Source: Escherichia coli
Lineage (GTDB): Bacteria > Pseudomonadota > Gammaproteobacteria > Enterobacterales > Enterobacteriaceae
NCBI RefSeq assembly: GCF_003334255.1
Contig: NZ_QOWU01000142.1
Length of the DNA stretch: 1,978 nucleotides
Reading direction: 5' to 3' (one strand)
Under the pieces are notes generated by a model. It had not been told where the DNA came from and did not search any database. It saw only the letters and a list, made by a program, of their open reading frames with translations. Position 1 is the stretch's first letter. Every line of letters starts with the position of its first letter. Positions 1,011 to 1,978 of this stretch are shown here, piece by piece. The position numbers and the translations under genes are program-made.

Positions 1011-1037
1011 AAAAAACAAAACCCGCCGAAGCGGGTT
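1011..1037 (-). terminator. Rho-independent terminator at the 3' end of the hok mRNA
   Basis: On the minus strand: a 7-bp stem AACCCGC / GCGGGTT (1037-1031 pairs with 1026-1020) with a UUCG tetraloop (1030-1027), followed by UUGUUUUUU (1019-1011). Confidence 0.8.
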
Positions 1038-1105: not shown

Positions 1106-1261
1106 TTACTCCTCAGGTTCGTAAGCTGTGAAGACAGTGACCTCCGTCTGGCCGGTTCGGATTCGTACCTCGCAGAGGTCTTTCCTCGTTACCAGTGCCG
1201 TCACAATGACGGTAATACAGATGACGATCAGGGCGACTAACATCGCCTTTTGCTGCTTCAT
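1106..1261 (-). CDS. hok: Hok/Gef-family type I toxin, 51 aa
   Basis: MKQQKAMLVALIVICITVIVTALVTRKDLCEVRIRTGQTEVTVFTAYEPEE. It has a short basic N-terminus, one transmembrane helix and the conserved TRKxLCExR...GxxEVxxFxAYE tail. From memory it is nearly identical to E. coli HokD/RelF and close to HokC/Gef. ATG at 1261-1259 is preceded by AAGGAG (1276-1271) with a 9-nt spacer. The stop is TAA at 1108-1106. Confidence 0.93.
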   Translation of the reverse strand: MKQQKAMLVALIVICITVIVTALVTRKDLCEVRIRTGQTEVTVFTAYEPEE

Positions 1262-1318
1262 AGCCTGCTTCTCCTTGCCTTTCGGCGTGTAAGAGGCTAA
1301 CCTACATGTGACTAGCAT
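1106..1318 (-). CDS. mok: Mok-like leader reading frame (70 aa), an in-frame N-terminal extension of hok through which hok translation is coupled
   Basis: ATG at 1318-1316 (MLVTCRLASYTPKGKEKQA followed by the Hok sequence), with GAGG (1330-1327) 8 nt upstream. The in-frame layout matches my memory of chromosomal mokC/hokC. Both the start codon and the Shine-Dalgarno site lie inside the region covered by the antisense Sok-like RNA. Confidence 0.65.
   Translation of the reverse strand: MLVTCRLASYTPKGKEKQAMKQQKAMLVALIVICITVIVTALVTRKDLCEVRIRTGQTEVTVFTAYEPEE
1275..1303 (+). promoter_or_regulatory. Sigma-70 promoter of the Sok-like antisense RNA
   Basis: TTGCCT (1275-1280), a 17-nt spacer, then TAACCT (1298-1303). 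The block CTCCTTGC...GTAAGAGGCTAACCT..ATGTGACTAGCAT runs parallel to the R1 sok promoter and start region as I remember it (CTCCTTGCGC...GTAAGAGGCTATCCTGATGTGGACTAGACAT). The -35 overlaps the hok Shine-Dalgarno site on the other strand. Confidence 0.65.
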
Positions 1319-1381
1319 GAAATTGGCCTCAGATTAATGTTAAGCGTCCTGCAAGACGCATAATGTTAACTGGGGCTTTTC
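1308..1381 (+). ncRNA. sok: Sok-like antisense RNA (type I antitoxin), about 70 nt
   Basis: The start is predicted 5-7 nt downstream of the -10. A single-stranded 5' tail (about 1308-1325) is followed by a long imperfect hairpin (1326-1376) and a UUUU tail. The RNA is fully complementary to the hok mRNA leader, including the mok start codon (1316-1318) and the mok Shine-Dalgarno site (1327-1330). Confidence 0.75.
1326..1381 (+). terminator. Sok stem-loop and intrinsic terminator
   Basis: GCCTCAG (1326-1332) pairs with CTGGGGC (1370-1376). The inner stem TTAATGTTAAGCGTC (1334-1348) pairs with GACGCATAATGTTAA (1355-1369), with one A.A mismatch and two G.U pairs. The loop is CTGCAA, and TTTTCT follows (1377-1382). 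Confidence 0.7.
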
Positions 1382-1382
1382 T

Positions 1383-1418
1383 CTGTCTGCCTTACGGTGG
1401 CATGCCCGAGGCAGACAG
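1383..1418 (-). other. 5' leader hairpin of the hok mRNA
   Basis: A perfect 9-bp inverted repeat, CTGTCTGCC (1383-1391) with GGCAGACAG (1410-1418), around an 18-nt loop containing the self-complementary GGCATGCC. It corresponds to the GGCUxUCUGCC...GGCAGAxAG leader hairpin I recall from R1 hok mRNA. Confidence 0.6.
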
Positions 1419-1432
1419 CCTCAAGCACCCGC
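1419..1432 (-). promoter_or_regulatory. tac-like 5'-terminal element of the hok mRNA
   Basis: The minus-strand RNA GCGGGUGCUUGAGG lies at the predicted 5' end. It resembles the R1 hok 5' end (GGCGCUUGAGG, from memory) and is complementary to 1042-1056. Confidence 0.65.
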
Positions 1433-1436
1433 AGCA

Positions 1437-1464
1437 ATTCTACTTAACTCTCGCTTTACCGCAA
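1437..1464 (-). promoter_or_regulatory. Candidate sigma-70 promoter of the hok/mok mRNA
   Basis: On the minus strand: TTGCGG (1464-1459), a 16-nt spacer, then TAGAAT (1442-1437). The predicted start near 1430-1432 coincides with the tac-like element. Together with the terminator this gives an mRNA of about 420 nt, in the size range known for hok mRNAs. Confidence 0.55.
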
Positions 1465-1476
1465 ACCGTTTTTACC

Positions 1477-1498
1477 CGATATGGGAATTCCCATATCG
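1477..1498. repeat. 22-bp perfect palindrome CGATATGGGAATTCCCATATCG, function unknown
   Basis: Exact self-complementarity, checked base by base and centred on GAATTC. It lies 12 bp upstream of the hok -35 and 8 bp downstream of the 34-aa ORF stop. The confidence value refers to the repeat existing, not to any function. Confidence 0.95.
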
Positions 1499-1506
1499 TA
1501 ATGAAT

Positions 1507-1611
1507 TCAGTTCCCTAGTCGATCCATCAAAAACACAACCAGGCAGTAAACACCCACAACAGCAATAACAGCCAGCGCACCTTCCATTGCCAGTGAGATA
1601 TCATCCGACAC
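1507..1611 (-). CDS. Candidate 34-aa single-pass membrane micro-protein
   Basis: GTG at 1611-1609 to TGA at 1509-1507: (M)SDDISLAMEGALAVIAVVGVYCLVVFLMDRLGN. AAGGAGGG (1622-1615) lies upstream; the AGGAGG core ends 4 nt before the GTG. The peptide has an acidic N-terminus followed by an 18-residue hydrophobic helix. This frame has a strong first-position G bias (GCG CTG GCT GTT ATT GCT GTT GTG GGT GTT), which favours it over the overlapping ATG frame. Confidence 0.5.
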   Translation of the reverse strand: MSDDISLAMEGALAVIAVVGVYCLVVFLMDRLGN

Positions 1612-1646
1612 ATTCCCTCCTTTGGTGTTAATCCCGGCGAACGCTT

Positions 1647-1730
1647 TTACCCACACCGACAAATAACATATACTAAAAAAGCGATAGCCATAGCAACGCC
1701 TGTAATTGCAAATGCTTCAGGCCAGATCAT
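1647..1730 (-). CDS. Candidate 27-aa hydrophobic micro-protein, translationally coupled to the DUF551 gene
   Basis: ATG at 1730-1728 overlaps the TGA stop (1729-1727) of the upstream gene as ATGA. GGAGG (1742-1738) lies 7 nt upstream. The peptide is MIWPEAFAITGVAMAIAFLVYVICRCG, with a TAA stop at 1649-1647, and is essentially one transmembrane helix. Confidence 0.55.
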   Translation of the reverse strand: MIWPEAFAITGVAMAIAFLVYVICRCG

Positions 1731-1978
1731 TGGCGCACCTCCTGCGGCGGTTCTGGTAACGGCATCCAGTCGGTTACATTGCGGCTCTGTGTTTCGAAAA
1801 ATTCATCACCATTACGGACTACATCAAAAAACTCACCGTCTCGATATTGCGCATAAAGAACGAATGCGCCATCACATAAAATAATTACGTGCTGACCATC
1901 ATCCGGCATTCGCTCACTACAGCTTATCCAACCATCCGGAGTTACCGGAGAGTTGCCCGATAGTGCATTCTGCTCCAG
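1727..1978 (-). CDS. DUF551-like phage protein, C-terminal 83 codons; the 5' end probably lies beyond the right edge
   Basis: The frame is open from 1978 to TGA at 1729-1727: LEQNALSGNSPVTPDGWISCSERMPDDGQHVIILCDGAFVLYAQYRDGEFFDVVRNGDEFFETQSRNVTDWMPLPEPPQEVRQ. The pattern GWISxxERMP...V(I/L)(I/L)...VTxWMPLPEPP is what I recall for DUF551. The domain begins upstream of the ATG (1909-1907) used by the ORF track, and that ATG has no good Shine-Dalgarno site, so the real start is probably outside the window. Confidence 0.8.
   Translation of the reverse strand: MEQNALSGNSPVTPDGWISCSERMPDDGQHVIILCDGAFVLYAQYRDGEFFDVVRNGDEFFETQSRNVTDWMPLPEPPQEVRQ

Follow-up and report, generated by a model that had tools for sequence, protein, structure and literature searches.

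Two predicted single-helix peptides encoded between a DUF551 gene and hok/sok in an Escherichia coli prophage

The locus and its two micro-genes

The subject of this analysis is a 1,978-nucleotide (nt) stretch of Escherichia coli DNA (assembly GCF_003334255.1, contig NZ_QOWU01000142.1), which we refer to in its full length as the window. Between the 3' part of a DUF551-domain gene and a hok/sok toxin-antitoxin locus it carries two very short open reading frames (ORFs), here called ORF1 (27 amino acids, aa) and ORF2 (34 aa). A first-pass annotation had singled them out as candidate genes for membrane peptides and raised the possibility of a link to hok. We consider it likely that both are genuine genes, each for a very small peptide that spans the inner membrane once, and that the window joins two mosaic modules that happen to abut: one in which ORF1 is coupled by re-initiation to the gene before it, and one in which ORF2 forms a unit with hok/sok. 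The features at the locus, some named with the help of the NCBI Prokaryotic Genome Annotation Pipeline (PGAP), are as follows.

1727..1978, minus strand: 3' part of the DUF551-domain gene, open for 84 codons (TGA 1729-1727) and extending beyond the window
1738..1742, minus strand: Shine-Dalgarno site GGAGG of ORF1, within the last DUF551 codons (CAG GAG GTG) and 7 nt before the ATG
1647..1730, minus strand: ORF1, 27 aa (ATG 1730-1728, TAA 1649-1647), with an ATGA overlap of the DUF551 TGA
1615..1622, minus strand: Shine-Dalgarno site AAGGAGGG of ORF2, in the 35-nt spacer between ORF1 and ORF2, with 4 nt from GGAGG to GTG
1507..1611, minus strand: ORF2, 34 aa (GTG 1611-1609, TGA 1509-1507)
1477..1498, no strand assigned: perfect palindrome of 22 nt, CGATATGGGAATTCCCATATCG, after the ORF2 stop and before the hok promoter
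1437..1464, minus strand: putative hok promoter (TTGCGG, 16 nt, TAGAAT), read from the sequence, with a predicted start near G1430
1256..1430, minus strand: leader of the hok mRNA with the sok antisense region (match to Rfam RF01794 at 117.6 bits, E=1.2e-27, over the full model 1-157)
1106..1318, minus strand: mok (70 aa) with nested hok (51 aa, 1261..1106), called 'type I toxin-antitoxin system toxin HokD' by PGAP in an identical locus
1020..1037, minus strand: hairpin and T-run resembling an intrinsic terminator, at the end of the hok transcript, overlapping a sub-threshold Rfam isrK match

The genes all lie on the minus strand, and ORF1 and ORF2 stand where the first-pass annotation had placed them. 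The arrangement it described for ORF1 (the ATGA overlap with the DUF551 stop and a GGAGG 7 nt upstream), the strong Shine-Dalgarno site ahead of ORF2 and the position directly upstream of hok were each confirmed. The window matches a prophage of E. coli JE86-ST05 at 100% identity, where the gene order is P ... ead/Ea22-like - DUF551 - [ORF1] - ORF2 - hokD - hypothetical - DUF968 - RusA - Q, and the site is the P-to-Q (nin-type) region of a lambdoid prophage. In that identical locus the DUF551 gene, which PGAP names DUF551 domain-containing protein, runs for 302 continuous codons.

The ORF1 peptide is MIWPEAFAITGVAMAIAFLVYVICRCG and the ORF2 peptide is (M/V)SDDISLAMEGALAVIAVVGVYCLVVFLMDRLGN. 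Each had been described as consisting mostly of one hydrophobic helix, and the hydropathy values agree: the best 19-mers of ORF1 and ORF2 have mean Kyte-Doolittle hydropathies of 2.45 and 2.72 and summed Hessa-scale energies of -1.7 and -2.2 kcal/mol, respectively. Both have the predicted build of a single-pass membrane micro-protein, with one bilayer-length hydrophobic stretch between short polar flanks. ORF2 carries a net charge of -3, with acidic ends. Their Shine-Dalgarno sites are predicted to form duplexes of -11.6 kcal/mol (ORF1) and -12.1 kcal/mol (ORF2) with the anti-Shine-Dalgarno sequence. Chance had been thought an unlikely source of two such ORFs, and shuffling upheld this, since the window holds two GGAGG-led hydrophobic micro-ORFs of 20-60 aa against a mean of 0.0005 in 2000 shuffles.

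Selection, translation and earlier annotation

Homologous loci were gathered by four anchors: the DUF551 C-terminus, an ORF1 DNA pattern, Mok/Hok and an ORF2 DNA pattern. The resulting sample consists of heavily sampled, related and redundant E. coli and Shigella prophages, and a scan of genome contigs added little outside Escherichia. Purifying selection, proposed at the outset as a check on both ORFs, was evident as a synonymous excess in the proposed frames only. Substitutions were counted along a minimum spanning tree, which is a heuristic and not a codon-model test. For ORF1, 59 unique 84-nt homologues yielded 112 synonymous changes on 19.4 sites and 107 non-synonymous changes on 58.6 sites (p=7.5e-17); for ORF2, 22 unique core sequences yielded 53.7 synonymous changes on 20 sites and 67.3 non-synonymous changes on 58 sites (p=4.7e-6). 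The excess was not significant in frames +1 and +2 of ORF1 on the same 59-sequence tree, nor in frames +1 and +2 of ORF2 in the spanning-tree counts. Median Nei-Gojobori ratios of non-synonymous to synonymous divergence (dN/dS) were 0.21 for ORF1 and 0.36 for ORF2 in the proposed frames, as opposed to 0.84-1.6 in the others. Insertions and deletions in ORF1 and ORF2 were all multiples of three. The proposed frames stayed open across silent-site divergences (pS) of ~0.5-0.7, while the alternative frames were full of stops.

These patterns bear directly on the idea that the ORFs yield no functional peptide and that the DNA is conserved for hok promoter elements, mRNA structure or recombination sites. 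In its favor, the hok -35 element adjoins the 3' end of ORF2, which persists as a stub when the rest is lost, and rare ORF1 nonsense alleles persist within conserved DNA. However, the concentration of substitutions at synonymous sites of a single frame, the frames that remain open as silent sites diverge, the conservation of start codon, Shine-Dalgarno site and length, and the published ribosome footprints on ORF2 (PMC5597208) all run counter to it. We regard this idea as largely refuted, with very little probability left to it. Frame-specific purifying selection, conserved starts and Shine-Dalgarno sites, in-frame indels and ~96% intact copies instead support ORF1 and ORF2 as genuine coding genes, apparently for single-helix peptides.

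The ORF1 family follows the consensus M-x-W-P-E/D-A-F-x-x-x-G-...-Y-x-I-C-R-W-G, with M1, W3, P4, A6, F7 and G11 invariant in the alignment. Its DNA pattern returned 149 matches that reduce to 42 peptide variants, nearly all exactly 27 aa long; the length variants are in-frame deletions of 2-4 codons. Divergent members share 52-67% aa identity with the window copy at nearly saturated silent sites (pS 0.6-0.77), with non-synonymous divergence (pN) of 0.18-0.30. The commonest O157:H7 allele, MIWPEAFAITGVAIAIDFLVYVICRWG (L002 1571-1654 and many O157 loci), has an Asp in the middle of the helix (A17D), and further variants have Glu at positions 16-19.

ORF2 homologues form two clades of ~50% aa identity, MSDDISLAMEGALAV... 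and MWEVIVLxLKCALAI..., with the common core ALA-x-x-AV-x-x-x-YCL-x-x-x-L-M-D-R/H-L-S/G-D/N. The Shine-Dalgarno site of ORF2 is kept in the homologues of clade A.

Frames broken within otherwise conserved DNA had been named as an observation that would speak against the ORFs. Such cases were rare for ORF1, which was intact in 219 of 227 homologous regions detected at the nucleotide level; the exceptions were a codon-3 amber allele, found in two backgrounds, a single truncation and three cases of short extension by stop loss. ORF2 was intact in 194 of 203 homologous regions, the remainder being recombination stubs or stop shifts, and no internal nonsense codon or frameshift occurred in its full-length copies among these 203.

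The codon-3 TGG->TAG alleles of ORF1 are found at L003 1514-1597 (Shigella phage POCJ13) and at L082/L316. Two different ORF1 bodies carry the same 5' segment, so the nonsense allele seems to have spread by recombination. In the POCJ13 record, RefSeq places an opposite-strand 'hypothetical protein', gp73, over the ORF1 region, and this gene is probably spurious.

Coupling of ORF1 to the preceding gene, which had also been proposed, is supported by conservation of the ATGA junction in homologues. Residue 2 of the peptide varies (I, N, T, S) and its codon nonetheless has A in first position throughout, a requirement of the overlapping TGA. Nearly all homologues keep GGAGGTG or GGAGGAT, and in 112 of the 149 copies the junction TGA closes an upstream frame of 60 codons or more, most others being an ATGATGA variant. 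With a conserved start/stop overlap and a conserved Shine-Dalgarno site inside the upstream gene, ORF1 has the structural hallmarks expected of translational coupling. Gene pairs coupled through ATGA or TAATG overlaps are common in phage operons. ORF1 resembles them in its textbook 4-nt ATGA and in a Shine-Dalgarno site within the upstream coding sequence, in essentially all homologues, but differs in that the downstream partner is unusually small and the same junction recurs behind unrelated genes.

The first-pass annotation had taken ORFs this small to escape the usual annotation cut-offs, which does not hold for ORF2. It is RefSeq WP_001278450.1, a PGAP hypothetical protein; in the current Sakai reference genome it is ECs_5710 of prophage Sp6, between ECs_1518 (DUF551) and ECs_1520 (mok); and it occurs on >1000 contigs in public protein collections, in some of which it is labeled 'membrane protein'. 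Hücker et al. 2017 (PMC5597208) had already reported it from E. coli O157:H7 Sakai as the novel translated gene XECs145, for which the authors predicted an inner-membrane location with 1 transmembrane helix. The ECs_5710/XECs145 peptide is identical to ORF2 save for an ATG in place of the GTG start, and it occupies the same position between DUF551 and mok/hok. In lysogeny broth (LB), XECs145 was among the better-translated novel ORFs (79.1; translatome reads per kilobase per million, RPKM, 346.1; ribosomal coverage value, RCV, 4.35; coverage 0.99), with RCVs of 1.14 in brain-heart infusion (BHI) and 0.01 under cold and osmotic stress (PMC5597208). ORF2 is, in short, an annotated hypothetical protein with support from ribosome profiling (Ribo-seq). 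Footprints were another check suggested initially. They were found for ORF2, and ORF1 lies below the 30-aa cut-off of that study.

XECs145 was drawn from an upstream-extended start, with 53-54 codons, and its publication does not describe a function or the linkage to hok (PMC5597208). We rejected this longer form of 51-54 aa (TTG 1662 in the window), whose extension overlaps ORF1, is unconserved in clade B and has no Shine-Dalgarno site. Conservation supports the 34-aa form behind the AAGGAGG site as the more probable start. On sequence inspection, ORF1 had a single start, and the in-frame Met9 of ORF2 had no Shine-Dalgarno site that would mark it as a second start. A rival frame of 28 aa, MCRMISHWQWKVRWLLLLLWVFTAWLCF (1527-1613, minus strand, ATG 1613), was also set aside, as its ATG is mostly ATA in homologues and stops interrupt it in several. 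Its ATG lies 2 nt before the ORF2 GTG and the Shine-Dalgarno site is common to both. This frame is very likely not a gene, although it could compete with ORF2 for initiation in the window lineage.

Several observations count against the favored account of ORF1 and ORF2. Locus counts are not independent events, because the sampled prophages are redundant and related. The close ORF1 clade of the window shows 0-1 synonymous versus 2-4 non-synonymous changes, and the window ORF1 has Cys at the nearly invariant W26 (W26C, a derived state). The GTG start of the window ORF2 is a minority allele, most homologues having ATG, and in clade B start codons are variable and the Shine-Dalgarno site is missing from some copies. 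Because of W26C, the GTG start and the non-synonymous excess among close relatives of ORF1, constraint may be relaxed locally, and local relaxation or diversification of ORF1 in the window lineage is possible. As to translation, the assignment of reads to XECs145 may be ambiguous because the Sakai genome has several near-identical copies, and ORF1 was outside the reach of the Ribo-seq study, which excluded ORFs of <30 aa (PMC5597208).

ORF1 was unannotated in every RefSeq and phage record that we examined. Members of its family are entered as a 'hypothetical protein' of 27 aa in a small number of GenBank submissions (e.g., ASL59204.1, AOM45384.1, ETI78407.1), and a search of 5.8 billion sequences gave only 7 protein clusters. 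Profile searches of Pfam, NCBIfam, PHROGs and PADLOC found no significant match to either peptide, the best sub-threshold family being phrog_38566 (unknown function, E=0.0035), and profile searches of the PDB were empty. No homology was found between ORF1 and ORF2 or between ORF2 and Hok, nor any similarity between ORF1 and Hok. Accessions and peptide strings of ORF1 and ORF2 were not found in the main text of published papers, nor were the ORFs found in the supplements of an Enterobacteriaceae microproteome preprint and of the EDL933 translatome paper, and the literature yielded no proteomic or tagging data on them. In K-12, the gene following the DUF551 gene yfdS is yfdT, which is not an ORF1 homologue. 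An apparent DUF551-ORF1 fusion ('Rosetta stone'), suggested by 121-aa DUF551 proteins in the 90% cluster of ORF1, proved to be a clustering artefact, as these sequences end normally in ...PQEVNQ. The ORF1 micro-genes form a real and widespread family that has mostly escaped annotation and keeps a conserved coupling junction.

Type I toxins such as Ibs, ShoB, TisB, DinQ and ZorO are 19-35 aa long and very hydrophobic, have a dedicated antisense or divergent small RNA (sRNA), and are tightly blocked in translation. ORF1 and ORF2 are similar to them in length and hydrophobicity and adjoin a known type I toxin, so one or both might be toxins under antisense RNA control within a toxin gene cluster; a sigma-70-like match on the plus strand at 1646-1674, antisense to ORF1, would suit this view. 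That match, however, lies in codons that differ among ORF1 variants, and it is one of 3 matches where 1.9 are expected. No Rfam family besides hok/sok scored at a meaningful level, so no antisense sRNA antitoxin or other RNA partner was found here. The ribosome-binding sites of the ORFs are strong and accessible, or the ORF is directly coupled, in contrast to the sequestered sites typical of type I toxins. The net charge of ORF2 (-3) differs from the basic tails of most such toxins. ORF2 is, moreover, well translated in healthy LB cultures, with the RCV given above (PMC5597208). We judge it very unlikely that either peptide is a toxin of this kind. As for Hok itself, all three are small single-helix peptides, but Hok has a periplasmic Cys-containing tail and an elaborate translational lock, whereas ORF1 and ORF2 lack the tail and have open ribosome-binding sites.

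Neighborhoods of ORF1 and ORF2

The ORF1-ORF2 segment is present in 699 of 5426 complete E. coli genomes (~13%), mostly enterohaemorrhagic E. coli (EHEC), with a median of two copies per positive genome. The ORF1 family occurs in 92 phage records, including Shiga toxin (Stx) phages of both the Stx1 and Stx2 types, BP-4795, VT1-Sakai and 933W-like phages, and in 195 plasmids. The latter are mostly ~90-100 kb non-mobilizable replicons of Escherichia and Salmonella, a pattern consistent with P1-like phage-plasmids (e.g., SJ46). For the ORF2 family, tblastn of 50,697 phage records matched only 4 (Tritos, Evi, mEp460 and HannyBb), with no match among Stx or Sakai phages; it was also seen in six plasmids and had 7 representatives among 1.84 billion proteins.

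The ORF1 junction, with its Shine-Dalgarno site in the last codons and its ATGA or ATGATGA, recurs after four or more upstream gene families that are unrelated to one another. These upstream genes encode DUF551 proteins ending in ...PQEV[RNK]Q, proteins of 114-187 aa ending in ...GLISVEDVLR, a 131-aa CxxC-containing protein ending in ...NDLKNIEQEVNR, a 151-aa protein ending in ...IGVEVK and, in phage-plasmid SJ46, a 110-aa protein. Because the last few codons of these otherwise unrelated proteins resemble each other (E-V-x-x or E-D-V-L-R), the junction appears to travel with ORF1. The same arrangement behind unrelated genes also points to ORF1 as a promiscuous 'rider' on early and accessory genes that is specific neither to DUF551 nor to hok. 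Downstream, 127 ORF1 copies could be evaluated: 62 were followed by neither ORF2 nor hok, 33 by hok only, 30 by ORF2 and hok, and 2 by ORF2 only. The last place in the early-left operon of Stx phages, ahead of xis/int, is often taken by ORF1.

ORF2 behaved in the opposite way. In an ORF2-anchored scan, the 5' motif of the hok mRNA lay within 170 nt in 63 of 65 unique contexts (97%), and 62 had an intact hok ORF. Within those 63 contexts, ORF1 was upstream in 31 and absent from 31, with too little upstream sequence in 1; HannyBb and mEp460, for example, have ORF2 directly before mokW and no ORF1. Each clade has a fixed spacing from ORF2 to the hok start, 42 nt (clade B) or 76 nt (clade A); an insert that contains the palindrome accounts for the difference. 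The linkage holds across ~50% aa divergence and differing upstream neighbors. The reverse scan, anchored on hok, found an intact ORF2 in only ~41-44% of the closest hok cassettes, and a few cassettes without ORF2 keep its last 6-12 codons fused to foreign sequence. Viewed as a hok/sok component, then, ORF2 is constantly associated with the 5' region of the hok mRNA but is not generally present in hok/sok cassettes.

Since the contexts of ORF1 and ORF2 behave oppositely, we interpret the window as a [DUF551-ORF1] module joined to an [ORF2-palindrome-hok/sok] module. The two ORFs do not make up one functional pair: ORF1 forms a module of its own, found behind unrelated genes as well, and half of its copies have no hok near them. 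The proposed hok link fares differently for the two: it has genetic support for ORF2, although hok cassettes often lack ORF2, and has none for ORF1. The tight association of ORF2 with hok/sok appears to have been unnoted previously.

In a few loci, hok beside ORF2 is damaged or replaced. At L009 (~2143 onward), foreign sequence breaks mok shortly after its start; at L036 (after 1969), the hok cassette is replaced just past the hok -10 element with ORF2 present; and L061 (after 885) has ORF2 and the hok 5' region but no Hok ORF. In contexts of ORF1 without hok, a 40-aa hydrophobic ORF, MSKVNVLIFSAIVGFGFTAGVQIYITWEKIINYAWSCFIK, recurs two genes downstream (L028 2114-2236; L004 1871-1993; L088 2087-2209) and is annotated as gp090 in phage SJ46. 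The accessory regions around ORF1 appear to hold several genes for micro membrane proteins.

Candidate functions and minor features of the region

Given an ATG that overlaps the TGA of the gene before it and a Shine-Dalgarno site within the final codons of that gene, ribosomes would re-initiate on ORF1. Having no leader of its own, ORF1 would be made by ribosomes that finish the upstream gene (termination-reinitiation), tying its output to that gene. This arrangement would define a widespread 27-aa family of phage membrane proteins always expressed by re-initiation from the preceding gene. ORF2 carries a strong Shine-Dalgarno site of its own, is translated in ordinary lysogen cultures and stops 42-76 nt short of the hok mRNA start. 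Both peptides would leave the ribosome before emerging from the exit tunnel and presumably insert post-translationally as single helices. ORF1 is probably oriented N-out/C-in, because Arg25 is its only basic residue.

The small proteins KdpF, AcrZ, MgtS, MgrB, PmrR and YohP have <50 aa and one hydrophobic helix, and mostly escaped annotation until conservation and ribosome profiling revealed them. We favor this group as the model of how ORF1 and ORF2 might work, with which they share short polar ends. By analogy with KdpF, AcrZ, MgtS and MgrB, both peptides would most probably bind a larger membrane protein. There is no homology to the group, which belongs to the core genome whereas ORF1 and ORF2 are phage-borne, and profiles of KdpF, SecE and ATP-synthase c gave ORF1 and ORF2 only weak matches far below cut-offs.

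To our knowledge, the canonical hok/sok cassette consists of mok/hok and the sok RNA only, and its description includes no upstream protein gene. The complete hok/sok locus lies immediately downstream of ORF2, which is physically part of one cassette subtype. That ORF2 is almost never found without hok, and hok often without ORF2, suggests that the value of ORF2 depends on hok. Hok would be the most economical partner for ORF2, and we entertain tentatively that ORF2 modulates the action of Hok during prophage induction. Takada et al. 2021 (PMC8621323) reported that hokW-sokW of prophage Sp5 raises lysis and doubles the release of Sp5 phage after mitomycin C, and because it promotes lysis and release, a modulator of these is a reasonable guess for ORF2. 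It is doubtful, though conceivable, that ORF2 is a third, protein component of this hok/sok subtype, a constitutively made part of a tripartite type I toxin-antitoxin system, tuning Hok. Tuning could proceed through pairing with the Hok helix to set the threshold or timing of depolarization, or through coupling of upstream transcription to hok expression.

The same observations can be read without any action on Hok. Both peptides may be independent accessory membrane proteins of the 'moron' type, serving superinfection exclusion or the modulation of host membrane proteins, with ORF2 merely moving together with hok. A serious alternative to a functional link is indeed physical hitch-hiking of ORF2 and hok across the 42-76 nt gap. 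More than half of hok cassettes are without ORF2, some with a 3' stub only, and the hokW-sokW paper (PMC8621323) mentions no upstream ORF; together, the many ORF2-less cassettes and that study indicate that Hok does not need ORF2. The lack of ORF2-family matches in Stx and Sakai phages, the translation of ORF2 in uninduced cultures, where Hok is silent, and its lack of sequence similarity to Hok also fit independent accessory proteins. The asymmetry of the linkage does not, as hok is found in 97% of ORF2 contexts but ORF2 in only ~41-44% of hok contexts; if breakpoints fell at random and ORF2 were useful by itself, one would expect hok-less ORF2 and ORF2-less hok at about equal frequency. Nor would this explanation readily account for a link that survives ~50% aa divergence and a change of upstream neighbors. 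We consider independent accessory proteins quite possible, yet somewhat short of probable.

The effect of hokW-sokW on lysis and Sp5 release (PMC8621323), together with the single-helix and phage-borne nature of the peptides, could also suggest that they are lysis modulators of the holin, antiholin or spanin-like kind acting with Hok. Their location argues otherwise, since they lie in an early nin/ea-type region between P and Q and not in a late lysis cassette beside an endolysin, and ORF1 additionally ends the early-left operon by xis/int and occurs in ~90-100 kb non-mobilizable plasmids. With 27-34 aa, both peptides fall well short of known holins (usually at least 60 aa); they have no dual-start motif and matched no PHROG lysis family. 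A lysis role of this type is very unlikely in our estimation.

Small membrane proteins are systematically under-annotated, and the prophage accessory regions of pathogenic E. coli are rich in them. Against this background, the comparative evidence is firm for a 27-aa gene family that RefSeq missed in the records examined, and the likely start of an already reported Ribo-seq gene (XECs145) is corrected. ORF2 is, further, an almost obligate neighbor of one subtype of hok/sok cassette. Should it modulate Hok, a protein layer would be added to a textbook case of purely RNA-controlled toxin expression, in a system linked to lysis and phage release in lysogens of Stx phages. Should it not, what remains is still a clean annotation fix and a defined candidate pair for small-protein screens.

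The palindrome at 1477-1498 has an EcoRI site at its center and, as RNA, would fold into a hairpin with a dG of -21.2 kcal/mol (z -4.5), after which no T-run was found. It occurs in the clade A ORF2-hok cassettes and in one hok cassette without ORF2 (L250), and is missing from clade B. It could serve as an insulator, an mRNA 3' stabilizer or a protein-binding site. An imperfect direct repeat of ~20 nt is present as GGGTAAAAGCGTTCGCCGGG at the ORF1 stop (1633-1652) and as GGGTAAAAACGGTTTGCGGT just past the palindrome (1458-1477). In ORF2-less loci, L275 among them, AAAACGGTTTGCGGGG and the hok promoter come immediately after the ORF1 stop. Given this arrangement and the direct repeat, ORF2 and the palindrome look like an insertion into an older ORF1-hok junction.

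The Rfam model of the hok leader begins at 1430, at the predicted hok start. We infer the hok promoter TTGCGG-16 nt-TAGAAT from its sequence; a stricter consensus scan of the window did not recover the element at 1437..1464. In the JE86-ST05 prophage, PGAP shows the DUF551 gene (L001 3166-4074) as two 'partial' pseudogene pieces despite its continuous 302-codon frame. The gene probably encodes a mosaic protein with a middle part that fails to align to the reference, rather than being broken. The match to Rfam IsrK, a Salmonella prophage sRNA, covers 1016-1097 on the minus strand at 27.1 bits versus a gathering score of 50, and takes in the hok transcript's 3' end together with its terminator.

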